Source of the DNA: Candidatus Poseidoniales archaeon
GTDB lineage: Archaea; Thermoplasmatota; Poseidoniia; Poseidoniales; Thalassarchaeaceae
DNA length: 64,000 nt
Reading direction: 5' to 3'
NCBI GenBank assembly: GCA_012959435.1
Contig: DUDF01000068.1
Span: forward strand, 34,468-98,467
Each line of letters starts with the position of its first letter. Within the stretch, counting starts at the first letter, position 1. This document shows, in pieces, positions 9,001 through 63,663 of this stretch. The translations under genes and the position numbers were made by a program. Below the pieces are notes generated by a model. It worked only from the letters and a program-made list of their open reading frames with translations. It did no database searches and was not told the origin of the DNA.

Positions 9001-9335
9001 GGGCATCTGGCGATTTACAACTATATATTGCCATTAATGATGATGAAACAAATCTCACAAGCGTTCCCGTTGGACTTGTTCGTGAGCAATCTACAGGTGA
9101 AATTTTATGGCAGAATTTAGATTCACCTGCTGCGATTGGTCTAATGATATTACTAATATCTGTAGTGTTAATGATTGTAGTTGCAGCGGTTAGACACAGT
9201 GATGAAGAATGGGATGAGGTGGAGGAAGAAGAAGCCCCACCACCGCCACCATGGGCTCCTGATGAATGGCCAGAAGGTGCAGGCCCTCCTCCCGAAATAC
9301 TAACTCAGAGTTCATCACTTCTTGAGGAAGAGTGA
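3021..9335 (+). CDS. Giant (2104 aa) type-I anchored surface protein; predicted glycoprotein/adhesin-like
   Basis: - N-terminal signal or anchor: AYLLALLLIIMPMTMLVSA.
- Dozens of N-x-S/T sequons.
- Three jelly-roll modules ending FLDNVNL, LFIDDVRIS and GWYLDDVGLYV (MAM / choice-of-anchor-J-like).
- A CARDB-like domain near the C-terminus.
- TM helix AAIGLMILLISVVLMIVVAAV.
- Acidic, proline-rich cytoplasmic tail ending LLEEE.
- Alternative start at ATG 3039. Confidence 0.85.
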   Translation: MCRGEAMVENSDTRRAYLLALLLIIMPMTMLVSANQTMWVGPSVVSSPLGGGNVTVTGFQVPQGEEVLDAWLEVSEDGMTDLGTGVEWVEDANGKLNFSWGLWDSTTANFFDGALSLDANHSVGRVNDFETLKRIVQDWQYGGTPGVWEISDMLGIAGPINGSGRESSGGLIPIGGVTGRYIIATSDDQALSNGVHSWMESPDFYVPNVIGNFNLTFSYWQHMYTPSEVNGNADGAWVEMSIDGGANWNYVTPEGGYNNRINSAAPAPNGSGGSNFEVWASPNATGWQQATFNLDNYPGIANASNVRFRFVVWTDVNSTVQRPGMFLDNVNLTNTGAEFGSWFHGNLSTYYADGANSFLSFEANLSNASGPIMLDYAVDFDMEGDIYDNFNWEWSLNNFTWTSFSPQMPSFGVLIGGQMYVDDSRGWKPLSHPLPQSLAGNSSVYIRVYLETDSFPGSGFGGTTLDPPEGLFIDDVRISSGTTGNQTTHLYLNFTGVNNGNATHGNIGSGLDEWQHLTTHGVNGPSYQADSFENSPLLPEGWVIDTDRGSGWEFRAHNTTWVYGPDTPDSGSYYAGIVFSDNYQPNTWTHLISPALAIPVGSHARISFKQFACAEPGWDGGVVYISTDDGRTWIPYGQNEPDFYDTQQNQNPTSDIYNLWAMDGSNAKPTCYGQRGPSNNKSWVTKEADVSQYGGQAIKLRFSFYSDPLLEADGWYLDDVGLYVDWFEEQGTWTSGLIDTSRNGLGTIDIDASVPNGTWVRCSLMDENGAIMLGMTNLSFPAIPLPGSLGEKVRIKLDMGTSEPELTPKIHALYVGGTNIFSARDASNGWAISPYLDLNQTSGNLTNLGLSTYSVTGPLIYANSPMEVFELSGVGAGVLVTLLDERGVSFNYGSLGNKTVQRTIPLTAYRVQIDLQPGGWINSLKVAGRILQPGLNVSIDVGDDGSIDWSFSEGNDGRGQLGWQDSLMLSNSRNATTDSQWNGMNFISLLIPNGAIVTGGVVGVQTYQQSVEVNLSIGGVSLLNQQTVENGLGVMVSLNTAVIQSINAQVGMPLPNATRDWKQIPISLDTTDLTQIRIYGVNYILRDNVSGLGPVVSEAVNASSPTNGTYNIPVRVDSEAGGIGLWGGVDHAPLLVNEVVSVPGTWLPDRPTIITTELTHLYARELLASANLTLTAPSGDLISFSISDFSSTPTFTQNSGGGQVSFDTTTTTISPIERGWQIEWHLQTEWGWDDVDWLDVAAGSWAVNGVNLADDVVRIGIGSKAVENDMEIDTWEVRNQDGNLLSTRGSPAYPFEIAAGSIVEVSGKVRFEDSTMRPSNENFQVTIQSEHINQTLQVVASSGQNGQWNASVVLGQASGKVNLTAWILRPGPTGVSLSGATDVTSDRTPVTLIIDSNPPTLGPLMAYTPSGPRPADGNVWPEDRLLPLSVEISEIESLGGPLFLHSWMEGLDDIDSDGEADEWEYSIMREITPMKVNGTVKIDFPSLDLVANGEHGKISLYITGSDLAGHPVLNGGAPGVDNDMATLVTQADLPTTISQPSISLDRWGDNLLVGQIHEFSFSLTDDNGIGSIDNISIALAPGDYRGDIWLDPLSRELSVNDNSPITPVGLVIDELAAGSFKVKIQFRLGVDSPQSWNTSIQNPSVIVTEHGQVLELGSNSLSHLSWSVDGRVNLMLLSANDLSPPNSELIGDTLYLQPDDRFNFSGQLHHPANGLNVVLDGNWQVNFSMTDGQNDVENWHIALSDASSFIATSEIPQTRWNRRSAMVQAIIVGGVQTIPITEMKLHIVIDSIPPQLDFPVTTLSTINSNQMMQQLVTVRVNEAGGMGQNPLELHWSFRRHGVEISSMHGVSQLPLATEAEGLWTYSTRIDFDVNPDLLIPDDDLVIWIVGGDLAGHSLEGIGTEGNSRMTQLRVIFFQPVLSELTVNPYQPTIESMFTIDGRILNEGNDMGVVKVGLWAWQSSGGGGRYHVLNETNVTLLPQQHAIFTFSQEAWASGDLQLYIAINDDETNLTSVPVGLVREQSTGEILWQNLDSPAAIGLMILLISVVLMIVVAAVRHSDEEWDEVEEEEAPPPPPWAPDEWPEGAGPPPEILTQSSSLLEEE

Positions 9336-9363
9336 CAAAGGGAAGCATATACCGAGTTGCAAC

Positions 9364-9448
9364 GCAGGGGTACCCGAGCGGTCAAAGGGGGTGGGCTCAA
9401 GATCCACTGCTTAGTGCTTCGCAGGTTCGAATCCTGCTCCCTGCACCA
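9364..9448 (+). tRNA. tRNA-Leu (anticodon CAA), genomically encoded CCA
   Basis: - Manual cloverleaf: acceptor GCAGGGG/TCCCTGC.
- Anticodon stem-loop GTGGG-CTCAAGA-TCCAC.
- 13-nt variable arm.
- T-arm GCAGG-TTCGAAT-CCTGC.
- Discriminator A at 9445, CCA at 9446-9448. Confidence 0.9.
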
Positions 9449-12565: not shown

Positions 12566-13039
12566 ATGACAAAGATTCGGGGGGATACTCGGGAAGTAGC
12601 CTTAGCTCACAAAACGAGAAGAGGCATTGTTGAAACATTACAAAATGTTGAGGAGAGGTCAACAGTTCAGATTCAAGAAACAATTGGAGTCACTAGGTAC
12701 CACCTATATCACCATCTCAAACAACTTGTGAGTGCTGGGATTATAGAGAACCATCGTGACAAGGGCAGAGCACGTTGGTGGCGGCTTACTGGACCGATTG
12801 ATTTAGATGTGGCAAGTGATGCAAGTCAACCCGATTTATCCGGACTTCCTGATGAAGTTTCAGCCCTAATAAGAAGGGGCTCTGATGTCCATTGGATTGA
12901 AATTCCGGGTTCTGCAAGAGAATCCATTGCGGCCAAAAAAATGCTTGAAAGTGTAGCTGATGAATGGGGAGTTGAACTTGATTTACCATTCACTTTTACA
13001 CCAGGTGGAATCCTCATCATTGGTAAACCACGAAACTGA
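12566..13039 (+). CDS. ArsR-family winged-helix transcription regulator with a roughly 70-aa C-terminal domain
   Basis: ALAHKTRRGIVETLQNVEERSTVQIQETIGVTRYHLYHHLKQLVSAGIIE matches the ArsR/SmtB HTH pattern. GGGGAG lies 8 nt upstream of the ATG. The protein contains no cysteines. Confidence 0.75.
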   Translation: MTKIRGDTREVALAHKTRRGIVETLQNVEERSTVQIQETIGVTRYHLYHHLKQLVSAGIIENHRDKGRARWWRLTGPIDLDVASDASQPDLSGLPDEVSALIRRGSDVHWIEIPGSARESIAAKKMLESVADEWGVELDLPFTFTPGGILIIGKPRN

Positions 13040-13048
13040 GGTGAATGC

Positions 13049-13465
13049 ATGACTGAGGGAGAAGTAGAGGTTGATATTGCTTTATTAGAAGTTGAGTCAG
13101 AAATTTCTCCACCATTAATCAATTGTCCAAATTGTAATGGTTTACTTCCCCTAGGTTTGGGAACTAAGACTTGCACTCTATGTGATGCGGTTGTAAACGT
13201 TGAACATGAGGCCACACGAAAAGAGTGGGTAGAGGAAAGATTTGCTTGCCCAAACTGCTCCAAAGTTTTGGTTTGTGGGGTGGAAGAGAGACCTGCAAAA
13301 GTAGCTTGTTCATCCTGTTCAAATCAAATTGTTGTGAAACCAAAGGTTGTCAAGGTAGAGATTACTTGCCCTTCCTGTGAGAGACGCCTTCGCCTCAAGC
13401 CTCGACCAGGCTCGCGTCAGGTCAACTGTCCTGCTTGTGATGATGCTTTCAAGGTCACATTCTGA
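13049..13465 (+). CDS. Triple zinc-ribbon protein (three CPxC...CxxC units; the last is MJ0042-type)
   Basis: - Six CxxC pairs: CPNC/CTLC, CPNC/CSSC, CPSC/CPAC.
- The last unit, ITCPSCERRLRLKPRPGSRQVNCPACDDAFKVTF, fits the MJ0042-family finger.
- A GAGGTGA RBS is present.
- The gene starts 9 nt after the ArsR stop. Confidence 0.7.
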   Translation: MTEGEVEVDIALLEVESEISPPLINCPNCNGLLPLGLGTKTCTLCDAVVNVEHEATRKEWVEERFACPNCSKVLVCGVEERPAKVACSSCSNQIVVKPKVVKVEITCPSCERRLRLKPRPGSRQVNCPACDDAFKVTF

Positions 13466-13645
13466 TGCATGTGTAGGTACTTGGGAACTATTGTTTAGCA
13501 TTACACCTTTGGGGTATATGAATAGCCATTTGACGGATAATCTCACCCTGCCCACTCAAATAGGAAGAGACTTGCAGGTTTGTACTAGGAGCATTGTGCT
13601 CCAGGGGATGGGATCCTGACTGAAACAGAAGAGAAGTTAGCAGAA

Positions 13646-16225
13646 TTGAAGAAGCAAGCCGTTGGTGGTAGTGACCATTCACTTGCTGAATTACGTCATG
13701 AAATTACTGGTTCTGACTCGCCATCTTTGAAGAGAGCAGGCCAGGTTTCTCAAAATCTTACTAATGAAGAAGGGCTTCGTCGTAGCCTTGGTAGAGAACG
13801 CCGTTTACGGTTGAAGGATCAAGCAGAACGACTTTCGGCTGCTAAGGGCTCAATGAGTCGCGCTCTACAAATGGAGCACCAATCTATTCTAAATAATCTT
13901 GAATCTGAAATGCGTGTTGAGATGGAATCAGAACTTTCACGTTTAGAAAAAGAAACTCTCAGTAGAGAAGAAGAGATATTGCGCGAAGAATTGGATATGA
14001 GACTTGAGCGCGAGGAGATGTCACTTCGCGAACAACTTGAAGTTGAACAAGAACGCCGGCTAAGTGCTAGTCGTGAACAACTTCACACCCAACTTTCTAG
14101 TGATATGAATAATGAGTTTGATCGTCGCCGGGCTTTCTTGCAAGAGAAAATGGAGATTGAGGCGACCCAAGCACTCCAGGAGCAATTGTCTAATTTAGAA
14201 TCTGAATTAAAAGAAGAGATGGAGACTCAACTAAAGTCTGAGGAAGAACGTCAGGCAGAAATAATAGAAGCAGAACAGCATTCTCGTCTTTCAGAAAGGG
14301 AGATACAACTTAGAGATGGTATTCGTCGCCGCCTTGAGGGACAATTACGTAGCCGCCTGCGCGCTCGCGAGGCACGACTTAGAAGCGAGTATGAACATCG
14401 GGCTCATCGAATGGAGGAAGAGATTGCAAAAGACCTTCAAGTTGAATTAGAACAGCGTCTTACTTCGGAAACCGAACAACTTGAAGAGCGAATGCAACAG
14501 GATTTGGAGTTAGCAGTTGCACGCAAACGAGATGAAGTCCGCTCATCAATTCTTAATGAACTAAAAACACAGTATGGTGAGCGAATTGCAGAGCGTAAAC
14601 AGCGCCTACGCGAACGTTATGATTTAACTTTCAGTCAGTCTATTGATGAGATAGAACAGGCTCTCAATATTGAACTAGAAGATGTGCTTCAAGGTCGAAT
14701 GGAGGGTGAGTTTGAAACTTACCGCCGATCGCGAGAATCAGAAATATCTAGCCGGTTATCTCGATTCCGTCATGAAAGAGAAATTGAACTTCGTCAACAA
14801 CTTTCATCCACCTTTGAGGGTAGAAAGCAAGAATGGATAGATCAATTAGAACAGGAATATCGTTCCAAAGAGTCAGCAGTTCAGCGTCAAATCATGGCTG
14901 AGATTGATGCACGGGTTCGTAATGAGAAGATATCTCAAGAAACTTCTCTTGACTTGTTAAAGCAAGAGACATCGATGGAACTAGAGGTTGAGATGGAATC
15001 AAGACTACGAGATTTCAGGTCTCGAAAGGAAACTGAAGTAACCGACCAATTAGAGCGTCAACTTTCCAAGCGTGAGGAGATTATGCGCAACAAAGCACTC
15101 ATTGAAGTTCGCCGCCGTGAATCGGAAATCCGTGCAGAAATCGAAGCACAGCTTGCTGTTAAGAGAGCAGAAATCCGTGAACGTCTCGCAACTCTTGAGC
15201 AGCGCTCAGAAGAATTCAAGCAAGTGGCAGAAGAAAAGATCCGCACCCAACTTGAGCGCAATCTCGTTTCAGATGATGATTTGGAGGATCAAGTTCGTGT
15301 CAAGCAATTAGAGGATGAAGCCGAGAATCTTGAGAGCCAAGATACTGTTCTAAATCGCCGCCAGCGCTGGATGGGTGCTTTGGAAGGTGCTCAAGGCCAG
15401 ATGCCAGAGACAGCGGTTCGCCCTGGGGGTCTCATTGCAGGTGGTCGATTAGGACAACCTAAGTCATCAGCTCTAGTTTCAGATGGAACACCCCCAACAC
15501 CTGCTGCAGGACTACTGGGCTCCGGAGGACGATTAGCACCTTCACGGGCACCAATTGGACAGGCTTCAACAGCAACAACTCCTACGCCAGCCACAACAAT
15601 TCCTCGGCCAACTACTGGTTCGACATTGGCTGAACGCCTAGCACCGGTAAGAGCACCTATTAGAGTTGAAGGTGAGCAACCTAAGCCCGTGCGCTCTCTA
15701 AGTGATATTGCAGCGGATGTAGGTCCTGATTCTGAAATCAAAAAGCCAATAGATGATGATTGGGATGATGAAGAAGAATTAGAAATGACTTCTGCTATTT
15801 CAGGATTAGTCACACTTAAAGAAACTGAAACGGAAACGGAAACTGAAACCGAATCAGTCACTGAAGAACCAACCCCTGTGAGCCGAGGTCCGCCAGGTGG
15901 GGGCAAATTGATTCGGGAAGATGCTGACGAAGGGCAAAGTGCGGGAGAAACATCAGTACGTGGTCCTCCTGGTGGTGGGAAACTAGTACGGGAAAGAATT
16001 GCTCCTTCTCAAAGAAGTCGAATTAGTGATAGTACAGATTTACCTGTTGAGATTTTAAAGCCTGTTCGTAGGCCAGTACTTCAACCAAAGAGCAGTGAAA
16101 CTGCTAACATAAAACCAACAACAAGTACAGTCAAAATGATGATTCCTGCCGAGTCTCCAGAAGTTGCAAAACTAACTCCTGTGAAAACAACTCTCACAGC
16201 CTTAGAAAGTTCTGAAGAAGAATGA
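13646..16225 (+). CDS. 859-aa E/R/L/Q-rich long alpha-helical (coiled-coil or ER/K single-helix) protein with a disordered P/T/A-rich C-terminal region
   Basis: About 500 aa are uninterrupted helix-forming E/R-rich sequence with recurring LESE[ML]..EME..L units. The rest is a Pro/Thr/Ala-rich tail, an ETETETETETE run and two RGPPGGGKL[IV]RE copies, ending SSEEE. The start is uncertain. TTG at 13646 is the first canonical start, and the frame is open from 13589. Confidence 0.75.
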   Translation: MKKQAVGGSDHSLAELRHEITGSDSPSLKRAGQVSQNLTNEEGLRRSLGRERRLRLKDQAERLSAAKGSMSRALQMEHQSILNNLESEMRVEMESELSRLEKETLSREEEILREELDMRLEREEMSLREQLEVEQERRLSASREQLHTQLSSDMNNEFDRRRAFLQEKMEIEATQALQEQLSNLESELKEEMETQLKSEEERQAEIIEAEQHSRLSEREIQLRDGIRRRLEGQLRSRLRAREARLRSEYEHRAHRMEEEIAKDLQVELEQRLTSETEQLEERMQQDLELAVARKRDEVRSSILNELKTQYGERIAERKQRLRERYDLTFSQSIDEIEQALNIELEDVLQGRMEGEFETYRRSRESEISSRLSRFRHEREIELRQQLSSTFEGRKQEWIDQLEQEYRSKESAVQRQIMAEIDARVRNEKISQETSLDLLKQETSMELEVEMESRLRDFRSRKETEVTDQLERQLSKREEIMRNKALIEVRRRESEIRAEIEAQLAVKRAEIRERLATLEQRSEEFKQVAEEKIRTQLERNLVSDDDLEDQVRVKQLEDEAENLESQDTVLNRRQRWMGALEGAQGQMPETAVRPGGLIAGGRLGQPKSSALVSDGTPPTPAAGLLGSGGRLAPSRAPIGQASTATTPTPATTIPRPTTGSTLAERLAPVRAPIRVEGEQPKPVRSLSDIAADVGPDSEIKKPIDDDWDDEEELEMTSAISGLVTLKETETETETETESVTEEPTPVSRGPPGGGKLIREDADEGQSAGETSVRGPPGGGKLVRERIAPSQRSRISDSTDLPVEILKPVRRPVLQPKSSETANIKPTTSTVKMMIPAESPEVAKLTPVKTTLTALESSEEE
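15821..15853 (+). repeat. In-frame (GAA-ACN)n microsatellite encoding ETETETETETE
   Basis: The sequence reads gaaactgaaacggaaacggaaactgaaaccgaa directly. Confidence 0.9.
15884..15994 (+). repeat. Two copies of a 12-codon unit encoding RGPPGGGKL[IV]RE, 25 codons apart
   Basis: The copies are cgaggtccgccaggtgggggcaaattgattcgggaa (15884-15919) and cgtggtcctcctggtggtgggaaactagtacgggaa (15959-15994). The protein is conserved and synonymous sites have diverged. Confidence 0.85.
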
Positions 16226-16310
16226 TGAACATATTTTTGTGTCGACTATGGTTATTTACACAAAATCACGATACCACCGCATTCAAAGGTAGAACGCTCC
16301 TCATAGCGCT

Positions 16311-18743
16311 ATGCGCGCCTCGGTGAGTCTCTCATCACTTCTGTTGATTGGTGTACTTATTCCTTTACTTGCCTCAACAACTGCAAGCGCTACTTCATTA
16401 GCAAATGCTGGTGTAGTATCAGAGATTGACAGCCACACAGTTGGGATGTGGCAAACTTACGATGGTTATTCAATAGTAGTTAATGAAACAGGTTTCTTAA
16501 CGGCATTAGAAATTAAAAATGATGGCTCAGTTACAGAATCATGGAATTTTACCTTGAATATGTCAATCACAAGTGGAGCGATTGATAATTTCCAACATAG
16601 GCTTGCACTTGGTACTGATTCTGGAGTAAAGGTAATTTCAACTGAATTTCATGATTTACTTTATTCAATCAATATCATTGGGGGTGTTGATTCTGTTGGA
16701 TGGGATGGTAATGGTGACTTATGGGTCGGTGATAGAGCCTACCGATATGTTGCGGAATATGATGATACAGCTGCAACTGGAGTCACGACTCAAACACACC
16801 TCATTAAAGTGACAGCGGTTCTTGGCATGGCAAATGGTAGTGTGATATCTGGAGGAAGAGATTCAATAGTTAGGGTATCAGCACCAAATGGCTCAATGAT
16901 TCATGAGATGATGGACATTCAAAGTGATGTAGAAGGGCTGTATCTAATTGATAATGGGGGTACTCTAGTTACTACCTCTACTACTGGGCAGTTGATAACA
17001 TATTCAACCTCTGATTGGCAAAAGACCGGTGACATCTATCTTTCAACCGGTGGAATCATCAGAACAGTGGAACAAAACACCGATGGGACATTAATTGTAG
17101 GGACTCACAACGGACATCTAACAATATTGAATAGTAGTGATTTATCTGAATTGAGTTCATTCTCATCTTTAGGCGAGATCATCAGTGTTAAACTGAGCCA
17201 AGATAATTCTTTCTTCCTTTTGTCAACTTTTTCTGATAAATCAGATATTATCATGTTTGATTTAGATAGTGATGGGGATGATGTAGTTGATGCTGTAGAT
17301 GACTTCCCCGATGATTCAACTCAACAAATAGATACAGATGGAGACGGTTATGGGGATAACCAACTCGGAAACTATCCCGATAAATACCCACAAGATGCAA
17401 CCCAATGGTTGGATTCAGATGGTGATGGCCATGGTGACAATGCTAGCGGAAATAATGGTGATTTATTCCCATTCAACCCAACTCAATTTCAAGATAGTGA
17501 CGGTGATGGATTTGGGGATAATCCACTAGGCCAAGATGCAGACGCATTCCCGAATGATATCTCACAATGGCAAGATACAGATGGTGATCAGTTAGGTGAC
17601 AACCCAAACGGCACTAATCCAGATGCTTGTCCAACATCAGCAGGAAATTCATACAAGGACAGAAATGGCTGTTCTGATTCAGATAATGATGGCTATAGTG
17701 ATCCACGTGGTGATGATCCAAAGTGCTCATCAACTTATCCAAATGGGGCCGATGCTTATCCTCAAGATGCAACACAGTGGTGTGATACTGATGACGATAA
17801 TTTCGGAGATAACTTGAGTGGTAACAACCCAGATTGGTGTCCTGCAGAGTGGGGTAATAGCACCCGCGGAATCATTTTCAATGCTACAACCAATCTTTAT
17901 GTCACAATACAGAGATTTGGTTGTATTGACTTTGATGGAGATGGTTACGAAGATAGTGGTGAGCAAGATGGGCTAACTGACTGGTCAACCAACAAGAGTG
18001 AGTGGGTAGACAGTGATCGTGACGGTGTTGGAGATAATGCAGATTGGGATGATTTAGATCCGACAGTTTGGACTCTTGAACAGTATTGTGTAAAGAATCC
18101 TACTGATTACTCTAATTGTGAATTTGTATATGTTCCTGTAGATACTTCAAATAATGAACAAGAGTTGTCAGCGAGCGAAAAACGCTCTAAATTAATCAAG
18201 GAATTTTTGGTATATGGGGGCGGTATTGGGATCTTGCTGATTGCAGGAATCTTGGCTATTTGGGGATTAGTTGGTATTGTTAGAACATCAATTGCAAAGC
18301 GAGCACCTGATGCACAATACAGCCACCAGGATGCGACAAAAGAGTTGCAAGCATTTGAAGAGGGAGAGGAGTTCAAGACTCGTGGCGGAATTACAGACCA
18401 GAAAGGCTGGGAAGATGAAAAACTCGGTGATGGTGTAACTGAGGACGAACTATGGGATCTTGCTGATGATATTGAGAAGCCTTCAGCTGTCCCTGATTCA
18501 AGCAAGTTTGCTGATGAAGACTCATCATCGGAGGAACCTGCTGAAGAGTCAGATGATACTTCAGAGCCAGAGCCAGAGCCAGTAGAAGTTGAGAAACAGC
18601 CAACACCTACTCCTGAAGCAGCAACTTCAGAAATGCCTGAGGGCGCACCTCCACTACCGGAAGGTGGATTGCCTGCAGGTTGGACAACAGAGCAGTGGGT
18701 CTACTATGGGCATCAGTGGTGGGACGCGAAGAACAAAAGTTGA
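16311..18743 (+). CDS. Type-I anchored surface protein: signal peptide, beta-propeller-like domain, thrombospondin type-3-like Ca-binding repeats, TM helix, acidic cytoplasmic tail
   Basis: - Signal peptide LLLIGVLIPLLASTTASATS.
- WD/YVTN-like repeats.
- At least 8 D-x-D-x-D-G-x-x-D-x units (DTDGDGYGDN, DSDGDGHGDN, DSDGDGFGDN, DTDGDQLGDN and others).
- TM helix GGGIGILLIAGILAIWGLVGIV.
- Acidic tail containing MPEGAPPLPEGG. Confidence 0.8.
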   Translation: MRASVSLSSLLLIGVLIPLLASTTASATSLANAGVVSEIDSHTVGMWQTYDGYSIVVNETGFLTALEIKNDGSVTESWNFTLNMSITSGAIDNFQHRLALGTDSGVKVISTEFHDLLYSINIIGGVDSVGWDGNGDLWVGDRAYRYVAEYDDTAATGVTTQTHLIKVTAVLGMANGSVISGGRDSIVRVSAPNGSMIHEMMDIQSDVEGLYLIDNGGTLVTTSTTGQLITYSTSDWQKTGDIYLSTGGIIRTVEQNTDGTLIVGTHNGHLTILNSSDLSELSSFSSLGEIISVKLSQDNSFFLLSTFSDKSDIIMFDLDSDGDDVVDAVDDFPDDSTQQIDTDGDGYGDNQLGNYPDKYPQDATQWLDSDGDGHGDNASGNNGDLFPFNPTQFQDSDGDGFGDNPLGQDADAFPNDISQWQDTDGDQLGDNPNGTNPDACPTSAGNSYKDRNGCSDSDNDGYSDPRGDDPKCSSTYPNGADAYPQDATQWCDTDDDNFGDNLSGNNPDWCPAEWGNSTRGIIFNATTNLYVTIQRFGCIDFDGDGYEDSGEQDGLTDWSTNKSEWVDSDRDGVGDNADWDDLDPTVWTLEQYCVKNPTDYSNCEFVYVPVDTSNNEQELSASEKRSKLIKEFLVYGGGIGILLIAGILAIWGLVGIVRTSIAKRAPDAQYSHQDATKELQAFEEGEEFKTRGGITDQKGWEDEKLGDGVTEDELWDLADDIEKPSAVPDSSKFADEDSSSEEPAEESDDTSEPEPEPVEVEKQPTPTPEAATSEMPEGAPPLPEGGLPAGWTTEQWVYYGHQWWDAKNKS
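17260..18062 (+). repeat. Array of TSP3-like calcium-binding repeat codons (Asp-rich) within the CDS
   Basis: There are repeated gat-nnn-gat-ggn-gat-ggn units, and the protein carries DxDxDGxxDxxD motifs. Confidence 0.8.
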
Positions 18744-18758
18744 TTCCAAAACTTATTC

Positions 18759-19010
18759 TCAGTGAAAATCAACTGGGATTCGGGTCTTTAATTCACCTAA
18801 TTCTTTCCCAGATAGAGTTGATTCCCCGTCTTGTTTGAGGTTATTTACTAGTAACCATAGAATTGTGTTCCAGGTTTTCTTTGTGGCATGAAGTTCAATG
18901 GTGTTGCAAGCGGCTAGTTTGAGTAATTTATTCTCATCACTACCTTTGGCAAAGAGTCCTTTCACCAAAGTGTTCGAACTAATCCAGTATGCGGGGGCTT
19001 GTCCTTTCAT
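18759..19010 (-). CDS. Hypothetical 83-aa protein, tightly coupled to the upstream RHH gene
   Basis: The ORF starts 5 nt after the RHH gene stop. I recognise no motif in it (not RelE/ParE/PIN-like by eye). Confidence 0.45.
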   Translation of the reverse strand: MKGQAPAYWISSNTLVKGLFAKGSDENKLLKLAACNTIELHATKKTWNTILWLLVNNLKQDGESTLSGKELGELKTRIPVDFH

Positions 19011-19015
19011 TTATT

Positions 19016-19258
19016 TCACTCCTGAAAAGGTGAAAGTTCAAGTTTGGCAATCAATCCATTTACATCAATGTCATTTATTGACTCAAGTGCTTGTTGAAGC
19101 GCATCACTATCCCTGCTTATTTGATTGAGTCTGTACTCCTTTAGCAATTGTTGTAATAAGTCATCCACACTCTTGTAATTTCCCAATGCTCGCATTGAAT
19201 TTAATTGCCTTCGTACCTCAAAACTTACGCTTATCGATGTCATATCTGGTGAGCCCAT
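19016..19258 (-). CDS. Ribbon-helix-helix (RHH) DNA-binding protein, 80 aa
   Basis: The N-terminus MTSISVSFEVRRQLNSMRALGNYKSVDDLLQQLLKEY fits a beta-strand/helix/helix RHH pattern. The gene lies downstream of ParA. Alternative start at Met6 (19243). Confidence 0.55.
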   Translation of the reverse strand: MGSPDMTSISVSFEVRRQLNSMRALGNYKSVDDLLQQLLKEYRLNQISRDSDALQQALESINDIDVNGLIAKLELSPFQE

Positions 19259-19372
19259 TTTATCACTTATTCACCGTGAATCAAGGCATCTATAGAAGGA
19301 TGACGGTTGAAAAAAGGAATAAAGATGCAATTTGACCTATAAGTGCCCCAAAGCAAATCCACATGCCAAGCA

Positions 19373-20353: not shown

Positions 20354-20452
20354 CTCTCTCTCCCCTCCTCGTGTGGTACGGGCTCTGCTTTGAACCTTAA
20401 TCATAATCGCGATTGATTGTGCATATAACTTGCAAATAAACTGCAAACTGAA

Positions 20453-23364: not shown

Positions 23365-23823
23365 TTATTCTTCGTAGACCCAATCTTCTGCTGAGCGGGT
23401 CCAATCTACTAATCCTTCAGGGAACCAAAGTCCCAGTTCGAATTCTGCTGTCTCTTCAGCATCGCTACCGTGTATTATGTTATGTCCGATATCCATTGCC
23501 CAATCGCCACGAATTGTACCAGGGGCAGCATCACGCCCATTTGTTGGTCCGATAATGTTGCGAGCCACCTTGATTGCATCCACGCCACACCACGCCATTG
23601 CTACAACAGGCCCAGATGTGATGAACTTGAGTAGTCCCGGGTAGAAAGGTCGTTCAGAGTGAACAGCGTAGTGACTAGATGCTAATTCGTGGGATGGTGT
23701 CAACTGCTTCAAACCCACCAAACGGAGGCCTTTATCTTCAAAACGGCCAATAATCTTGCCAACCAATCCTCGCTGAACCCCGTCGGGTTTGACCATCACA
23801 AATGTCGTCTGCATAGTACTCAC
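23365..23823 (-). CDS. ndk: Nucleoside diphosphate kinase
   Basis: [15 protein letters not shown] and NIIHGSD (active-site His) are present. Length is 152 aa. Confidence 0.95.
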
Positions 23824-26033: not shown

Positions 26034-26645
26034 TCATTCTTCTTCTTCAAAGTCTTCTTCGTTAATTTCTCCCGAATTCAACTTTAGGTATGATGGCAGT
26101 CCCATCAATTTGTCAAATGTTCGTGAAAGAATTATCTCATCTAAACGAGGGCTAGTACGTGCCAAGAATTGAACTGGTATGTTGATCACACCATTTTCTA
26201 ATTTGTATCTTCGCCTTAGGTTTCCACGTGCCTTTACCTTTACTCCGCGGTATGTCCGCTTAATTTTCACAAGGCCAATGACTACCCCGAGGTCTTCACC
26301 CTGGGTGTCAAGAACTGCACGGTCAAGTAATTCATCCGGCGCGTATAATTTCTCATTGATTCGGACGGTGTTGCGCCATCTGCGTTGTAATTCTCTCATA
26401 GATTTAGTTAGTTTGATACTCCCATCGGATTGAATACTATGGAGTAGTTCTTTTGAAAGTGGAGCAAACTCAGCTGGCTTGCGCATAAATTCATCTGCAA
26501 CTCCTGGTTCAACTTGTAATCTGAAAGATTGTACTCTTTCTTCATTAGGGTGATATCTTTCCCCCACTATTACTCCAACGCGCGTTTGCTTAACATAAAC
26601 TTCTCGTTGTAACAATTCTTGTATCCTAAATGATTCATCTGTCAT
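26034..26645 (-). CDS. Hypothetical protein with PRC-barrel-like segments and an acidic C-terminus
   Basis: VLDTQGEDLGVVIGLVKIKRTYRGVKVKA and VGVIVGERYH resemble PRC-barrel strands. The protein ends EEDFEEEE. I prefer the start at ATG 26645, with GAGAGGG 7 nt upstream. The ORF track start is 26672. Confidence 0.5.
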   Translation of the reverse strand: MTDESFRIQELLQREVYVKQTRVGVIVGERYHPNEERVQSFRLQVEPGVADEFMRKPAEFAPLSKELLHSIQSDGSIKLTKSMRELQRRWRNTVRINEKLYAPDELLDRAVLDTQGEDLGVVIGLVKIKRTYRGVKVKARGNLRRRYKLENGVINIPVQFLARTSPRLDEIILSRTFDKLMGLPSYLKLNSGEINEEDFEEEE

Positions 26646-41660: not shown

Positions 41661-42410
41661 ATGGAAGAGGGCACGATTGTGTACATAGATTACGACCTGT
41701 TTGAGGTTGATTCAGGAAAATTAATTGAGACCACGCGTGAGGAGACTGCAAAGTCAAATGACGTCCATGAAGAGACACGAAATTATGAACCCCTATGCGT
41801 CACTATCGGTGCGGGAACTTTGATTCCAGGATTTGAAGAGAGCCTTGAAGAAGCTAAGGCTGAAACAGATTATAATATTGAGATTTCAGCAGACAAAGCC
41901 TACGGTGAACGTGACCCTGGTGCTGTTGAAATGTTGGGTCCACAACAATTGGCTCGCCAAGTGAGAGACCCTGATAATTTACAAGTTGGAGGGCCTGTTG
42001 AGATTGGTGGTCGAAAAGGCACCCTAGTCATGTTCCGTGCTGGCCGTGCACGAATTGATTTCAACCATGAGTTAGCAGGCAAATCACTTCGTTACAATTA
42101 CCGAATTACCAAGGTTGTTGAAGAGAAGGATGAGATGGTAATGACTCTTCTAAAGATGTCAACAGGGTCTGATGACTTCGAGGTAGAGTTTGACGGAGAC
42201 GATGTATCCATCACAATTCCAGAGTTCCTTGGATATGACCAATCATGGGGTATGGCAAAGTTCCAACTCATTCGTTCACTACGTGACACTGTTGGTGCTA
42301 AAACAATCGTCTTTAGAGATGTGCATCAATTTAGAGAGGCCGCAGAAGAAGAAGAAGAAGAGCACGTTCACGATGAAAACTGTGACCATGATCACGACGA
42401 AGAAGAGTGA
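41661..42410 (+). CDS. FKBP-type peptidyl-prolyl isomerase (SlyD-like) with an acidic/His/Cys tail
   Basis: IGAGTLIPGFEESLEEAK and AYGERDP are present, with an IF-like insert. The tail is EEEEEEHVHDENCDHDHDEEE. I prefer ATG 41661 over GTG 41652. Confidence 0.85.
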   Translation: MEEGTIVYIDYDLFEVDSGKLIETTREETAKSNDVHEETRNYEPLCVTIGAGTLIPGFEESLEEAKAETDYNIEISADKAYGERDPGAVEMLGPQQLARQVRDPDNLQVGGPVEIGGRKGTLVMFRAGRARIDFNHELAGKSLRYNYRITKVVEEKDEMVMTLLKMSTGSDDFEVEFDGDDVSITIPEFLGYDQSWGMAKFQLIRSLRDTVGAKTIVFRDVHQFREAAEEEEEEHVHDENCDHDHDEEE

Positions 42411-57624: not shown

Positions 57625-60600
57625 TCAGTAGTCGTCATCGTCATCATAATCGTCGTCATCATAATCATCGTCATCTTCATCATCAAACATGTGATCATCA
57701 TCAAACAATTCTGAGCGACCAGTAAGGGCTCCCTTCATGCTGACGTATGCAACAATAGGCAGTACAATCATGGCAATAATGATTCCAATTACAGCGAGTA
57801 GATTTTGGCGAGCTCCTTCAACCCAACCCATGCCAAATGCGTAATCCACAGAAACTCCTACGCTAGCGCTATTATCTGACTCGTCAACTTCAGTAATTTC
57901 ATTTTCTGAGTCAACAATTACAATGACTCTGTCAACACCTTTCTCAGCGATCCAAGTTGCAGAAATAGGAATCGATTCATCGGCGATGCCATTCAGTTTT
58001 TGGGTCGCAAACGGTTTTTCAGAGTCGCCAGAATAGAATCCAACAACAAATCCAGAATTAGTTGTGCCACCGAGATTTGAAATCCATGCAGTAATCTCAA
58101 TTTTGTCACCGTTGGCAACAATCTCACGATCGGCTGAAATGCGTTCAACAGTCAACTGTGCCCCAAGTGCGCCGAATCGAATCCATTGAAGTTCATGGTC
58201 ACCATTTAGGTCCACAGGTTCTCTTACAGGGTCACTCTTGGAATTTCCTTCCGTTGCTAGTGGATTACCAGCTGAATCCCAACCTTCAATCCAGAATCCA
58301 ACTTCATAATCCTGAAGTGGCGGATTCATTCCATCGCCAATCAAGTCAACGGTACCAGTCCAAGTGATTGCTTGTTCCTCTTGAAGCATACCCAGTAGTG
58401 ATGAGCCTGAGGAAATCTGGCGCTGGTTCTCATCACGCATTAACCAATGAACCCATTGTGGACTTCTAGATAGGTCAGCATCTTCCCATCCAATGAACTC
58501 AACTGGTACTTCAGTAAGTGCAGAACTGTTGGCGATATCAATTACATCAATCGGTGCTAGCCTTTCAAGAACTCTAGGTGGTGCGTGGTCAACCTTAACT
58601 TGAAGAGTTGTGGAAACAGTATCACGGGTCATGTCCTCACCTCTTCCAGGGATATTTCTAACCCCTGCTAGGAAAGTTCTAGTCTCGCTAGAAGCGAGGG
58701 TAGGTGCAGCCCCAAGAGGAACTTCTAAACTAAATCCTCCTTCATCAGTTAGGCTACCATCTGACCAGTATTGTACACCATCAAAGACTTCAACAGTAAT
58801 TCCAAGATTTTTCGGTGCGGGAACATCGCTACCTTCGTAGACAACACGTCCAGACCAGCGCAAACGGTCGTTAGGAACAACTCTACTCCCGTCAAATACA
58901 GGACCAACTCGTGGTTCCTGAACGTCTTCTACAGTGTAAGTTTCAGCATCTAGAACCAAGTCATTCTCTATTCTGAATGTGTGCTCCGTGAAGATTTCTC
59001 GGCGTGGTTCAGTACTGCCCAATTGAGTGAATTCCAAGGCGACATCTGACAAATCAGCATCAGGCCAATCCCATGAGAACTGGAATGCAAATGTGACCAT
59101 CACCCAAGGCAAACCGGTTTCGTTAGTGGTGACAATTCCTCCACATGACTCATCAAGTAGATTATTGCAAGCGGGCGAAATAACAAGGAAATCATCATCA
59201 GTCCAGAAAGTTTCGTTACTACCGCTATACGACAATCGTTGTTGGTCTCTTTCAGGGTCTGGCCCTTCAAAGTCAAAGATGATGGAAATATCAGTGAAGT
59301 CAATCAAACCGTTTGCATCAACGAGTCCGAGTGTGAGGTATTGGGTTGTTCCAGCAAATGCTCTCTCTCCATCTTCGTGGCCTGCCCAGTGCAGTCCGGT
59401 GAACACCGAGTCCATGTCTTTCCTAGTTCTGTAAGTTACCAAGTCATAATCAAATCCTGGCCCGTCTGAACGCAGTAGTGAATTTCCTGCCACATCAGTC
59501 CCAGTAACATAGTATGATACTCGTGCCATATTTGGATTACTAGAATCATCAATAATTGCAAAGAATAACTTGTCAATGTCGTCAGTCATGTTGATCATTG
59601 TTTGGTTGATGTATTCCGCTGCGTCAGCATTACCATTACGGTTAGAGTCATGTTCTGACTCTACCCAGTAGTGAAGAGTCAATACTTCCGGTGCGCCTAT
59701 TGCATCCTGAATTCGGATACGTACTGCTTGATCTTCATAACCAGCTTCGTATGCATTATCCAGAGGTGTAGCTTCTATCAGCGATGGACTAGTTGCATCA
59801 ACTCGGATGGTTCGCTGCCACGATTCGTTGATTGACAAGACCTTGAGTGGGTCTCGTGGATTGTCAATTTGTACCTCATAAAACACACCCTCTGGGCGAT
59901 TAATAGTATCTACAGGGACTGGGATAAAGAACTCCCCATATTGGTTGGAGCGGTCTTTTGCTTGTAGGAAGTCACCTTCAGGTGTTCGCTTGATAACTGC
60001 AACATCAAAAGTAGAGTCTAGAGGTGCATCTTGGGTTCCATCATACCACACTGCTCCTTGGAAGTAGAGTGTTTCTCCAGATTTAACCCATTGATTTTCT
60101 GGCACATCATCGTGGTGGACTGCTCCATCATTGTCTCTAACCTTCATCCACCCAAGTCCATAGGATTGGTTTACACGAATGCCAGGTGTGTTACTTGTTC
60201 GTGATGATAGTGACATTGGTGAGAGACCTTGGTCATCAGTACAACTGACTCTGAATCCAACATTGCTCTGTTCGTTGAAGTTAGAGGTCACGCGGAAAGC
60301 CCAGTGGATTTCTAAAATCCCGTTACTGTTATTGGTCCATGTTGCAGAAGCATCTGGAATAATCCAGTCTTCGGGGTCATCATCAACAAGTGTTCCATCA
60401 CTGTTCCAAGTTAGGGCAGGGGTTTCACTTGAGGGTTGAGCCAAAAAGGTAAGAGTTGCTGTAGAAATCCCTCCAGCATCTTCACCAATCACATGTCTAC
60501 TTACGACTTCATAAGCGTCAATGGTTTCATGTAACACCATACTTTCATCCCAATTAATGTCAAGATTCACCGTTTGCATGACGTAAGTAATTGAGAATGA

Positions 60601-62739
60601 ATTAATCACCACATTCCCTGAAGAGTCTGATTCAATTTGGATAGGAATTAGAATCGTTCCAGAACCGGTGTCTGGGATTTCATTATTTATTGCATTAACA
60701 ATGGAACTACCCGAACTGCCGGTTGCTATGACTGTTGAAAGTAGGGCGTTAGTGTGAGTCCATTCAGAACTGCCATCACTACCAATGTCTAACTTCACGT
60801 TTTGAGGGGCATTAGAGTAGAGAGCGACTTGGAAGTCATCTACGATAGGGCTGTATGAGTTTCCCCCTCCAGAGTAAAAGTAGAAGCAAAGGGAGAGGTA
60901 AGTCAACCCCGTAGGGAAATTTACTGTTTGGCCAGACGTTCCCAAAGTTGTCGAAGTTCCCGATGTGCAACCGCTTGATGTGGTCCACTTTACAGATAGT
61001 GAACTTCCACCTAGTTCAGTTGCGTTCCACCATACTTGGGCAGCGACAGGTCCATTTGAGCCAGTGCCTCCAAAATATGGGGTTCGCATCCACATTAATC
61101 CTGAGGATGCGTATGAACCAGTATAACCGAGGTTAATTGTGTCAATCAGGGCAGAAACATTGCTGTTTGTACTGTTTAGGTATGCTCGCCATCCTAATTG
61201 GATTCCAGAATTTGCGAAAATCACTTTTGTTCCTATTTGTGCTTGTTTCCAAGTTATTCCACCATCATTTGTAACTTCGTATTCAACTGATGTACCAGTT
61301 GGCTTCCAAGATATTGCTGCTGTTAGTGTAAGGTCGGGGGTGGCTCTCGTTGCAATGATTGCAGATGATGTAATTATTCCAGAAGTGGTTGTGGGTGTTC
61401 CCATTGAAGTGGCAGTTGATTGGCCATTAGTCAGAATCTTGTGTGAACTTCCACTTGGACACTGGTTGTTGTAAAAACAAGTCCAAGCAATTGTTCCAGC
61501 GCCAGTTGATTCAATGCCATAATGAGCTCGGTTTGGGAACAAAATATCACCTTGATGTTCTGGCCATGCTCCACCTCTGAGGAAAACAGAGTGGTAGTTT
61601 TTCGCCTTACAATTGTTGTTACTTGCTTGCCAAGTACAGTAGACATTCACTGTCACTCTGTCCCCAGCAACATCAAGTCCCGAGGGCAGTCCCTTTCCGC
61701 TTGCGACCATCATTAACAGTTGTGTGGACAATGCTTGAACGGGGCTTGAGCGGTTGACATTCCACAAATAGTAATTGTAATTTGGATTCGAATATTGGGT
61801 TGTTAGCACATACATTTCATTGTCAACGGGGTCAAAGGCAACTCCCCCAATCTTGTAATTCCCGCCATACCATGCTTGATTGCATGACCAAACAGCCTGC
61901 CCAGCAGAATTCACAGACACAGTCCATTTTGCGATGTAGTTGTAATTCCAACTGGTGGTCCAAATAGTACCATTCCCATCGCTAGTGATGTCAGAAAGGT
62001 AACGCATAGTAGATGTTGTGCAGCTGTTATACTGCAAACTAGCAGTTCCAACCCTAGCACCAGTTGTGCTGTTATATTGATGAATAGTTGCGAAATTAGA
62101 TGTTCCTGAATTAGGCCAATGAGCGACATAAGTATTATTTTCTTGGAAAGCCACAGGACCAGCATAATTCCAAACCCCTCCAGAATAGGCTGAATATCCC
62201 TGTGTAGTTGCGCCAATTAAATCAGAAGCAGCAAATCCGATTGCCCCGCCGGTTGTATTGTGAACTGTGTTTGGTGCACTAGAAATATCGTTGGTCCTTG
62301 TTAAAGTCCAACTGGCTTCACTTTGCATCTCTCTAAGGGATGTTTGATCGTTACTGACATCGATTGAGGTACGATAATCATATCCAAAGTAAGGGACATT
62401 CATTGGTCCATCTGTTGTTGAAGGGCCGCCGAAGTGTGTATTGGTAGTTGCATTGGCCCAAGTAGTTGTTGAAGGGGTTCCAGTGAGGGAGAAACTGGCA
62501 GATGTGACATCGGCACCATAGGGCATGTTCACCCCGGCTGTCCCACCATTACCTTGACCAGTGAAAGTGTGGGAGAAGCTGGTAGTACCGTCAGCAAACT
62601 GGGTTTCAGTGGTTGCTGCGATTGCTAATGGCAATACTGCGGAGAATAGCATTAACCCAACTAGGAAAAATGAGATAGTTTTGATTTGAGTAATGCATCT
62701 GAACATAGGCGGTCCCTTAGGGACCGTTAGGGTTACCAT
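57625..62739 (-). CDS. Giant (1704 aa) type-I anchored surface protein with a CARDB domain and a poly-Asp/Tyr cytoplasmic tail
   Basis: - Signal/anchor FFLVGLMLFSAVLPLAIAA.
- Ser/Thr/Asn/Gly-rich beta ectodomain with many sequons.
- C-terminal CARDB-like domain (EITAWISNLGGTTNSGFVVGFYSG...VDESDNSA).
- TM helix LLAVIGIIIAMIVLPIVAYV.
- Tail DDEDDDDYDDDDYDDDDDY.
- Alternative start at ATG 62706. Confidence 0.85.
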   Translation of the reverse strand: MVTLTVPKGPPMFRCITQIKTISFFLVGLMLFSAVLPLAIAATTETQFADGTTSFSHTFTGQGNGGTAGVNMPYGADVTSASFSLTGTPSTTTWANATTNTHFGGPSTTDGPMNVPYFGYDYRTSIDVSNDQTSLREMQSEASWTLTRTNDISSAPNTVHNTTGGAIGFAASDLIGATTQGYSAYSGGVWNYAGPVAFQENNTYVAHWPNSGTSNFATIHQYNSTTGARVGTASLQYNSCTTSTMRYLSDITSDGNGTIWTTSWNYNYIAKWTVSVNSAGQAVWSCNQAWYGGNYKIGGVAFDPVDNEMYVLTTQYSNPNYNYYLWNVNRSSPVQALSTQLLMMVASGKGLPSGLDVAGDRVTVNVYCTWQASNNNCKAKNYHSVFLRGGAWPEHQGDILFPNRAHYGIESTGAGTIAWTCFYNNQCPSGSSHKILTNGQSTATSMGTPTTTSGIITSSAIIATRATPDLTLTAAISWKPTGTSVEYEVTNDGGITWKQAQIGTKVIFANSGIQLGWRAYLNSTNSNVSALIDTINLGYTGSYASSGLMWMRTPYFGGTGSNGPVAAQVWWNATELGGSSLSVKWTTSSGCTSGTSTTLGTSGQTVNFPTGLTYLSLCFYFYSGGGNSYSPIVDDFQVALYSNAPQNVKLDIGSDGSSEWTHTNALLSTVIATGSSGSSIVNAINNEIPDTGSGTILIPIQIESDSSGNVVINSFSITYVMQTVNLDINWDESMVLHETIDAYEVVSRHVIGEDAGGISTATLTFLAQPSSETPALTWNSDGTLVDDDPEDWIIPDASATWTNNSNGILEIHWAFRVTSNFNEQSNVGFRVSCTDDQGLSPMSLSSRTSNTPGIRVNQSYGLGWMKVRDNDGAVHHDDVPENQWVKSGETLYFQGAVWYDGTQDAPLDSTFDVAVIKRTPEGDFLQAKDRSNQYGEFFIPVPVDTINRPEGVFYEVQIDNPRDPLKVLSINESWQRTIRVDATSPSLIEATPLDNAYEAGYEDQAVRIRIQDAIGAPEVLTLHYWVESEHDSNRNGNADAAEYINQTMINMTDDIDKLFFAIIDDSSNPNMARVSYYVTGTDVAGNSLLRSDGPGFDYDLVTYRTRKDMDSVFTGLHWAGHEDGERAFAGTTQYLTLGLVDANGLIDFTDISIIFDFEGPDPERDQQRLSYSGSNETFWTDDDFLVISPACNNLLDESCGGIVTTNETGLPWVMVTFAFQFSWDWPDADLSDVALEFTQLGSTEPRREIFTEHTFRIENDLVLDAETYTVEDVQEPRVGPVFDGSRVVPNDRLRWSGRVVYEGSDVPAPKNLGITVEVFDGVQYWSDGSLTDEGGFSLEVPLGAAPTLASSETRTFLAGVRNIPGRGEDMTRDTVSTTLQVKVDHAPPRVLERLAPIDVIDIANSSALTEVPVEFIGWEDADLSRSPQWVHWLMRDENQRQISSGSSLLGMLQEEQAITWTGTVDLIGDGMNPPLQDYEVGFWIEGWDSAGNPLATEGNSKSDPVREPVDLNGDHELQWIRFGALGAQLTVERISADREIVANGDKIEITAWISNLGGTTNSGFVVGFYSGDSEKPFATQKLNGIADESIPISATWIAEKGVDRVIVIVDSENEITEVDESDNSASVGVSVDYAFGMGWVEGARQNLLAVIGIIIAMIVLPIVAYVSMKGALTGRSELFDDDHMFDDEDDDDYDDDDYDDDDDY

Positions 62740-62820
62740 TTCAATCCTTTGTATTTAGAACAAAAAGCCGGTACACCGAAACTGTATCAATCAGGAGGCT
62801 TTCGAGCGGATGGGATTGAG

Positions 62821-63663
62821 ATGGCGGCAGGTAGGAAGCGGAAGACATCAAAGCGAAGTTTGAAAGCATATTTTGGAGAGTTTTGGGAGAACCAAAGAGA
62901 CCGTCACTTGGTTATTTTGGGAATGCTGACAGTTCTCACTTTTGCATTGATGTTGTGGGCTTTGGCCTTCTTCACAATATTTGCTTCAAACGCACAACAG
63001 GAAGCCAATAGTTGGGCGAATTTGACGGCTGTAACATGGGTTGGAGTCTTACTCGCTTTCGTTCTATTATTGTTTGTTATTCCGGAGTTTTTCCATTATC
63101 TTGGAATACGTAATTCTCTAGTTGATATGCTAGAAACAGACTCTCGCGCGGAGATGCAAAAAAACAAGAAAGAATTGGATGAGGCGGCGGAATTACTCGC
63201 TGGCGCTTGGCCAGCAAGAATCGAGGCTAAGAGAGTGGAGTTAGGATTACGCCGAGAGATGCCCGAGGGTATGGAATTACCAGCCAATGAAGGTAACGAA
63301 TTATTTGGCGGATGGTTGAACACAAAGTATTCACGATTAGCTCAGAGATTTCCGGACTCTAATATCTTCAAAGACCCGGGCATTAACAAGTTGATATTAT
63401 TCAGTTCACTTACTGGATTGGTGTTATTTGTCTATAATGCAACGATTGGATTAGCGCGCGAAACGGTGTCTAGTCCACGTAATATGAGCGTTGACTTAAC
63501 CTCAATCATGAATGGTGGGGAATATAATGCAACTTGGGCTCCACACTTGGATTTAGTTGGAGGGATTTTGATTGCTATATTTGCGGTTATTCTTTTCATG
63601 ACTGGACCCGCGTCCACTGACGAGGATGATTCAAAGAGTGACTCAATTCAAGAAGAAGAATGA
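62821..63663 (+). CDS. Hypothetical 4-TM membrane protein with a central cytoplasmic helical region and an acidic tail
   Basis: The basic N-terminus MAAGRKRKTSKRS is followed by 2+2 TM helices. The predicted outer loop carries the sequons NMS and NAT. The protein ends DSIQEEE. I prefer ATG 62821 over TTG 62749. Confidence 0.55.
   Translation: MAAGRKRKTSKRSLKAYFGEFWENQRDRHLVILGMLTVLTFALMLWALAFFTIFASNAQQEANSWANLTAVTWVGVLLAFVLLLFVIPEFFHYLGIRNSLVDMLETDSRAEMQKNKKELDEAAELLAGAWPARIEAKRVELGLRREMPEGMELPANEGNELFGGWLNTKYSRLAQRFPDSNIFKDPGINKLILFSSLTGLVLFVYNATIGLARETVSSPRNMSVDLTSIMNGGEYNATWAPHLDLVGGILIAIFAVILFMTGPASTDEDDSKSDSIQEEE

Follow-up and report, generated by a model that had tools for sequence, protein, structure and literature searches.

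Short C-terminal motifs are known as a kind of signal, with examples from eukaryotes, archaea, and bacteria. In eukaryotes, the EEVD-COOH end of Hsp70 and Hsp90 is bound by TPR co-chaperones, a -EE C-degron is read by the WD40 receptor DCAF12, and EEY/F-COOH ends are read by CAP-Gly domains and edited by TTL, TTLL, and CCP. Among lineage-restricted archaeal signals, PGF-CTERM, which belongs to the archaeosortase system, combines a motif with a transmembrane (TM) helix and a basic tail and is cleaved outside the cell, and the HbYX end of proteasome activators consists of a hydrophobic residue, Tyr, and X. In bacteria, the ligase RimK lengthens the C-terminus of bS6, which ends in Glu (PMC10092738). 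Here, we describe Glu-Glu-Glu (EEE) protein ends encoded in a stretch of 64,000 nucleotides (the window; GC content, ~44%) of contig DUDF01000068.1, from a Candidatus Poseidoniales archaeon of Marine Group IIb (MGIIb; Marine Group II [MGII], Poseidoniales). With moderate confidence, we read xEEE-COOH as a selected, lineage-specific C-terminal short linear motif of Marine Group II that is recognized by a cytoplasmic factor. A full-text literature search returned no description of such a motif in archaea or Poseidoniales.

A preliminary description of the window had listed five unrelated coding sequences (CDSs) stopping immediately after EEE. Rechecking of the open reading frames (ORFs) and codons showed each ORF to be present, with EEE directly before a TGA stop codon at the claimed codons (Table 1), and the same EEE ends appear in independent public gene calls where these were checked, namely for the 304-, 312-, 711-, and 2104-amino-acid (aa) genes. 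The number of credible CDSs counted in the window is 41, rather than the ~48 first claimed. In these same proteins, EEE makes up 0.1% of tripeptides, which predicts 0.04 EEE ends among the 41 CDSs, versus the five seen (binomial P=6e-10); the excess over chance is thus real. Stops preceded by EEE codons were found for five of 43 gene stops, versus 0/6516 in non-gene frames, and the window contains 21 GARGARGAR 9-mers, of which the five at gene ends, and no others, directly precede a stop. More generally, Glu is the last residue in 10 of the 41 window genes.

Table 1. Positions of the features discussed, counted from the first nucleotide of the window.
Feature	Position	Strand	Terminal Glu codons or sub-feature	C-terminal end or remark
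2104-aa type I surface protein	3021-9335	+	EEE, 9324..9332 = GAGGAAGAG, then TGA	..SSSLLEEE
Gene order around the 859-aa gene	12566-21451			ArsR-type helix-turn-helix protein, zinc-ribbon protein, 859-aa protein, 810-aa protein, two small ORFs, ParA/MinD-like ATPase, MoxR AAA+ ATPase
859-aa coiled-coil-like soluble protein	13646-16225	+	EEE, 16214..16222 = GAAGAAGAA, then TGA	..ALESSEEE
810-aa type I membrane protein	16311-18743	+		..LPAGWTTEQWVYYGHQWW
Nucleoside diphosphate kinase	23365-23823	-		
212-aa protein	26034-26672	-	EEEE, 26037..26048, then TGA	..EEDFEEEE
RimK alpha-L-glutamate ligase, bacterial-type, 306 aa	30530-31450	-		between UvrB and deoxyhypusine synthase (DHS)
CcsA-like 848-aa membrane protein	39035-41581	+		..PISSI
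FKBP26-type peptidyl-prolyl isomerase	41652-42410	+	EEE, 42399..42407 = GAAGAAGAG, then TGA	His-rich tail, ..DHDHDEEE
1704-aa CARDB surface protein	57625-62739	-	acidic tail, 57628..57717	..DDDDYDDDDYDDDDDY; D/E/Y-rich, cytoplasmic, last residue Tyr
4-TM membrane protein	62749-63663	+	EEE, 63652..63660 = GAAGAAGAA, then TGA	..DSIQEEE

Whether the excess might follow from acidic tails in general was assessed on a longer sequence. The flanks beyond the window were read from contig PSPV01000011.1 of the metagenome-assembled genome GCA_004195585.1, whose positions 9993-73992 are the window sequence, and were found to contain two further EEE ends—those of a 312-aa protein (..KNTEEE), which has a faint, far sub-threshold match to archaeal signal peptidase I, and of a 711-aa PAP2 membrane protein (..PTEEEE). 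None of the nine upstream contig genes outside the window ends in EEE. Permuting the last 10, 20, 30, or 50 residues of 48 contig genes predicted 0.36, 0.16, 0.12, and 0.06 EEE ends, respectively, versus the seven observed, and no simulation gave more than four. Furthermore, EEE lies at offset 0 from the end in these seven genes; the two EEEE tails alone also have it at offset 1, and offsets 2-11 are free of it. Thus, the signal is confined to the very terminus and does not reflect acidic tails as such.

Because the window had been flagged for its EEE ends, prevalence was counted only in families outside it, that is, in the contig flanks and among non-syntenic neighbors in other MGII loci. About five of ~94 such families (~5%) end in EEE, compared with an expected 0.1-0.2%, or ~30 times chance. 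These are the 312-aa protein, PAP2, a 412-aa protein, an ABC-transporter ATPase, and a 156-aa protein, with the EEE end of the ATPase occurring in two lineages (42% and 59% GC).

More detailed comparisons were made with orthologues obtained by clustering the ORFs of 26 loci from genomes (surrounding the 859-aa gene) and 80 loci from metagenomes (surrounding UvrB). The EEE end was found in 43 of 44 members of the FKBP family (the remaining one having SEE), in all 16 of the 2104-aa family, and in 66/66 homologue clusters of the 4-TM family, down to 48% identity. It was also found in 19 of 23 members of the 859-aa family, some with four or five Glu residues and including a Poseidonia sp. (MGIIa) orthologue at 44% identity, with one clade ending in ESD/DSD, and in five of six genomes for the 312-aa family, the sixth having SEE. 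For PAP2, the count is 69 of 116 full-length clusters, including nearly all clusters at >=48% identity. The 212-aa family (21/41, with others ending in LED, xDE, VEE, or LNE) and the CcsA-like family (13/48 orthologues, in clades other than that of the window copy) are more mixed, and in both the EEE ends belong to separate clades with differing tail sequences. By contrast, ~50 other families in the cluster table showed no EEE end, among them UvrB (0/80), DHS (0/71), UbiD (0/63), and p233 (0/57). In all, the EEE end occurs on at least 11 unrelated families, and its conservation spans >100 independent assemblies.

Column entropy at positions -1 to -3 was ~0 bits in the FKBP and 2104-aa families and 0.4-0.6 bits in the 859-aa family. 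In EEE families, it was 1-3 bits at -4 to -12; control families had 1.8-3.6 bits at -1 to -3. Residue -4 is L, H, Y, or D in the 2104-aa family, and across families it may be D, E, G, S, L, Y, Q, H, F, T, or others, such that the S-x-[LQS]-EEE sub-motif proposed initially is lost in orthologues. The FKBP tails are modular, with a His-rich metal-binding-like run, almost nothing, or a SAP domain (Pfam SAP, 1.1e-11, in some orthologues) placed before EEE. The last three residues therefore do not vary freely: the three terminal Glu residues are under purifying selection, while the sequence upstream drifts or is swapped. Together with the shuffles, this conservation bears out the original suggestion of a short linear motif rather than composition, and neither of the two refuting outcomes named with that suggestion (ends explained by local acidic composition, and free variation among orthologues) was observed.

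One might still attribute the ends to chance, to acidic low-complexity composition, or to a gene-calling artefact, given that the FKBP and 212-aa tails are acid-rich and that six of ~130 more distant FKBP26-like proteins, whose tails are long and E/K-rich, end in EEE, which is the composition level. We regard this explanation as extremely unlikely, however, since the enrichment, the shuffles, the entropies, the empty set of non-gene stops, and the 4-TM and PAP2 families all reject chance and composition, and since public gene calls agree where checked and the ends are conserved across the assemblies. GC/AT composition as a cause was likewise ruled out, with the motif being kept in loci of 36-64% GC.

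The EEE ends thus combine a fixed, extreme C-terminal position, conserved residues with variable flanks, and convergent occurrence. Their carriers are both membrane proteins (the 2104-aa surface protein, the 4-TM protein, the signal-peptidase-like protein, the PAP2 enzyme, and the CcsA-like protein) and soluble proteins (the FKBP chaperone, the coiled-coil-like protein, the 212-aa protein, and the ABC ATPase). With respect to topology, the 2104-aa and 1704-aa proteins each have a signal peptide, a large ectodomain, and one TM helix followed by the tail, an order that places the C-terminus in the cytoplasm; the helices of the 4-TM protein are even in number and its N-terminus is basic; and in the PAP2, 312-aa, and CcsA-like proteins, 8-30 residues separate EEE from the last helix. 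The FKBP, 859-aa, 212-aa, and ABC-ATPase proteins have no TM segment. The claim that all of the termini are cytoplasmic therefore holds by topology for the membrane proteins, whereas the carriers lacking TM segments are only presumed to be cytoplasmic. To judge from their hypervariable, low-complexity, length-variable sequences, the EEE tails are probably exposed and flexible. The cytoplasmic tail of the 2104-aa protein also contains a conserved Pro-rich segment (WPEGAGPPPEILT).

We propose that a cytoplasmic factor would recognize the three Glu side chains together with the free alpha-carboxylate. Such a factor may be a binding partner, a protease adaptor, or a Glu-specific enzyme, with the EEE end acting as a tag comparable to the EEVD, EEY, or -EE ends of eukaryotes. 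Alternatively, EEE may be a proteostasis rule, capping exposed C-terminal tails so as to block or direct their degradation or trimming by a lineage-specific protease, proteasome activator, or carboxypeptidase. Non-polar C-termini destabilize proteins and acidic ones stabilize them in bacteria and in Haloferax reporters. Consistent with such a rule, the carriers are functionally unrelated and their tails hypervariable and of low complexity, acidic last residues are in general excess (as in the Glu-ending window genes counted above), and related families end in EDE, ESE, SEE, or DAE. However, a pure charge cap should tolerate Asp, and no Asp was found at -1 to -3 among the tails listed for three large families (FKBP, 2104-aa, and 4-TM), with Asp being the commonest residue at -4. 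Furthermore, UvrB, DHS, and p233 have freely varying, presumably exposed ends without a cap. A proteostasis rule is thus considered rather unlikely, and the strict choice of Glu, not Asp, and the restriction to the extreme terminus speak for a specific pocket or enzyme rather than a generic charge cap. M14 carboxypeptidases encoded near PAP2 were examined as trimming enzymes and ruled out, because their signal peptide and C-terminal TM helix make them extracellular. Separately, the nucleoside diphosphate kinase family ends in WVYE, WIYE, or WVYEE across MGII.

The codons used for EEE were examined in 109 unique tails. GAA is used at -2 in 101 of these and at -3 in 79, and the last codon is GAA in 59 and GAG in 50, whereas the middle codon of internal EEE triplets is GAG in 38%. 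The skew persists in loci with a GC content of >=52%. GAG accounts for 62% of the Glu codons in these loci, and most internal EEE triplets read GAGGAGGAG or GAGGAGGAA, but GAGGAG was found in 0/18 terminal EEE ends. For comparison, GAAGAAGAG and GAGGAGGAG both encode EEE, and GAAGAAGCG encodes EEA. Non-EEE genes show no dip near their stops in GC content at third codon positions (GC3), and the -4 codons beside EEE vary freely. TGA, TAA, and TAG all follow EEE, with TGA used in 81% of EEE genes versus 61% of other genes; stop-codon specificity is thereby ruled out. This codon skew points to a decoding- or RNA-level constraint beside the amino-acid constraint. Possible causes include avoidance of a Shine-Dalgarno (SD)-like GGAG at the stop, the choice of tRNA-Glu at termination, and GAA-repeat slippage with concerted evolution.

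Taken further, these observations could mean that the RNA itself, GAA-GAA-GAR-stop, is selected—for termination or recycling, for tRNA-Glu in the P-site, or through avoidance of GGAG—with the peptide being a by-product. The GAA bias at -2, the lack of GAGGAG in GC-rich loci, the lack of a GC3 dip in non-EEE genes, and the preference for TGA would all fit such a decoding signal. On the other hand, GAR is never replaced by the purine-rich codons AAR, AGR, or GGR, the string always lies in frame and directly next to the stop (as in the five of 21 window 9-mers noted above), all three stop codons occur, and the property is family-specific rather than genome-wide. Moreover, the varied context downstream (a tRNA gene, a convergent gene, or a gene 16-86 nucleotides off) argues against reinitiation coupling, and a Shine-Dalgarno or reinitiation role of the purine run was ruled out because this context is inconsistent. 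GAAGAAGAG is only weakly complementary to what we take to be the typical archaeal anti-SD consensus, which may not be that of Poseidoniales. We therefore judge an RNA signal to be very unlikely as the sole basis of the EEE ends; the use of both Glu codons and of all three stops indicates selection on the peptide.

The window also encodes a candidate for an enzyme acting on such ends. The RimK protein listed in Table 1 matches Pfam RimK (1.8e-54) and Rimk_N (1e-27) and scores 241 bits against NCBIfam rimK_fam (cutoff, 143). Among equivalogs, the best match is the bacterial S6--L-glutamate ligase (283 bits), versus 166 for MptN, 134 for LysX, and 70 for CofF. Its alignment with the RimK structures of Pseudomonas and E. 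coli (7qyr/4iwx/5zct) covers the whole protein (E~1e-77, compared with 1e-22 for LysX), and the protein is ~50% identical to these enzymes. To our knowledge, bS6, the usual RimK substrate, is a ribosomal protein specific to bacteria and lacking in archaea. Since RimK extends C-termini ending in Glu, the EEE tails are obvious candidate substrates, and a C-terminus with at least two Glu residues and a RimK are both encoded in the same genome.

The EEE ends may accordingly be seen as a modification signal, namely primers for C-terminal poly-alpha-glutamylation by the window RimK, like the ..EE end of bS6. Besides the full-length orthologue in the window, the missing bS6, and the known extension of a Glu-ending C-terminus (PMC10092738), this would suit the variation in the number of encoded terminal Glu residues, from three to five among close orthologues, and the selection of Glu over Asp. 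However, RimK occurs at the UvrB-DHS site in only 11 of 80 related loci (a cluster of 12 when the window copy is counted), and the UvrB identity in these 11 is always >=80%. In the other loci spanning the site, UvrB nearly always directly adjoins DHS, and the EEE end of FKBP is kept; although RimK may be encoded elsewhere in those genomes, the motif is thus conserved in many lineages in which no RimK was seen at this position. The tail patterns also seem, by inspection, to be alike in loci with and without RimK there. Close homologues (>=65% identity) form only ~12 clusters at 90% identity, with the next matches being bacterial at ~50% identity, indicative of a recent horizontal acquisition. 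RimK as the order-wide writer of EEE ends was therefore ruled out, being horizontally acquired and confined to the closest relatives, and RimK priming as the main function of the EEE ends appears quite unlikely. The comparison with RimK made in the preliminary description holds insofar as a true orthologue lies in the same window, but does not provide a general explanation. In this subclade, RimK is plausibly at most a secondary user of a pre-existing EEE motif.

A second, distinct conserved acidic C-terminus is found on the 1704-aa protein, whose terminal run, described earlier as Asp/Tyr-rich, was confirmed. A [DE]n-Y end, which recalls EEY-COOH, is present in the window copy and in four of the five orthologues examined (DDDDDY, DDDDY, DEDEY, and EDEDEY). 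A more speculative and, in our estimate, improbable extension would be a cytoplasmic "C-terminal glutamate code," in which the EEE and [DE]n-Y ends are read and, in RimK-bearing MGIIb lineages, extended with Glu. If true, this would amount to a proteome-wide version, in a prokaryote, of the C-terminal glutamylation and tyrosination known from tubulin, and a bacterial ATP-grasp ligase would have been taken up with its natural substrate, bS6, left behind.

With respect to lineage range, FKBP representatives (clustered at 50% identity) that are >=50% identical to the query all end in EEE, whereas homologues at <40% identity mostly do not, with the named distant ones being from Thermoplasmata, Thermoplasmatales, and a Thermoplasmatota archaeon. 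On a divergent Thermoplasmatota contig with an EEE-ended FKBP, no second EEE end was found among 22 genes. With regard to MGII viruses (magroviruses), a tblastn search with the MGII PolB matched haloviruses and phages only. A PAP2 clade at 43-45% identity mostly has a short basic tail (SERRG or RRD), and two loci of this clade, L143 and L144 (57-62% GC), retain the ParA-PAP2-NadA synteny. The motif is clearest in MGIIb (Thalassarchaeaceae).

Several observations weigh against a motif read by a cytoplasmic factor. Prevalence outside the window, ~5%, is lower than that on contig PSPV01000011.1 (7/57 tabulated genes, ~12%). The GC-rich loci L143 and L144 show no EEE end among ~35 genes despite their shared synteny; together with the FKBP outgroups, these loci indicate that the motif is lineage-restricted and uneven within the order, part of which may lack it or carry it only rarely. 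Peptide selection alone cannot account for the codon skew. In addition, no reader was found: the sole C-terminus-binding domain encoded beside EEE genes is the PDZ domain of an M50 site-2 protease next to the 304/312 gene pair, and it was ruled out because it lies in a 167-aa acidic loop with glycosylation sequons, that is, outside the cell. Finally, the carriers have no obvious common function, and a general proteostasis or decoding rule fits this at least as well as a docking site does.

Few archaea of the surface ocean are as abundant as those of Marine Group II; as no member is in culture, sequence is the sole source of knowledge on their cell biology. A Glu-specific terminal motif on ~5% of families, including surface-protein anchors, a chaperone, and transporter subunits, implies an undescribed recognition system, for which the EEE motif offers a concrete handle. 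It would also be a rare prokaryotic case of a proteome-wide C-terminal linear motif, and RimK-bearing lineages provide a natural test of the role of a bacterial RimK in a cell without bS6.

The protein labels given initially mostly hold. The isomerase contains FKBP_C and FKBP26_IF domains in a domain search; the 2104-aa protein has a signal peptide, an InhA-like MAM domain, a TM helix at residues 2039-2057, and a 47-aa cytoplasmic tail; the 304-aa ORF encodes four TM segments; and the 859-aa protein is long, E/R-rich, and coiled-coil-like. The PRC-barrel label of the 212-aa protein is weak, consisting of a sub-threshold Pfam match (E=0.011). The likely true start of the 304-aa ORF is Met25 at 62821, giving 280 aa; the N-terminal extension begins with a TTG start, and orthologues are nearly all <=280 aa. 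Next to the 859-aa gene, the 810-aa protein has a signal peptide, a propeller-like region, TSP3-like DxDxDG calcium-binding repeats, and a TM helix at 639-657, and its 150-aa cytoplasmic tail closes with a conserved Trp-rich sequence, the first part of which is WW-domain-like. The gene order of this region is largely retained in the examined Poseidoniales loci, including Poseidonia sp.

Overall, the EEE end differs from the C-terminal signals described so far in sequence, lineage, carriers, and presumably reader. As in the RimK/bS6 system of bacteria, the C-terminus is an acceptor-like run of consecutive Glu residues and a true RimK orthologue is encoded in the window; unlike in that system, which has the one dedicated substrate bS6, the motif occurs on at least 11 unrelated families in an organism without bS6, and the ligase is found in a narrow subclade, versus an order-wide motif. 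The EEVD end of Hsp70 and Hsp90 likewise is an acidic extreme C-terminus on a tail (in the case of EEE, a probably flexible one) with a chaperone among its carriers (here, FKBP), but the sequence is EEE, the carriers are neither Hsp70 nor Hsp90 and are not chaperones alone, and no TPR reader was identified. In the DCAF12 and CAP-Gly systems, terminal Glu with a free carboxylate is recognized, and the 1704-aa family ends in [DE]n-Y; however, the ubiquitin ligase and tubulin systems are eukaryotic, no reader homologous to theirs was found here, and the motif shows enrichment instead of avoidance. Lastly, PGF-CTERM and HbYX share with EEE their character as lineage-restricted archaeal C-terminal signals. 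In contrast to an archaeosortase-type signal, the tails that follow the TM helices here are 8-47 aa long and acidic, with no PGF/PEF motif. Thus, compared with PGF-CTERM and HbYX, EEE is an acidic, cytoplasmic end, placed after the TM helix and carried by unrelated proteins.

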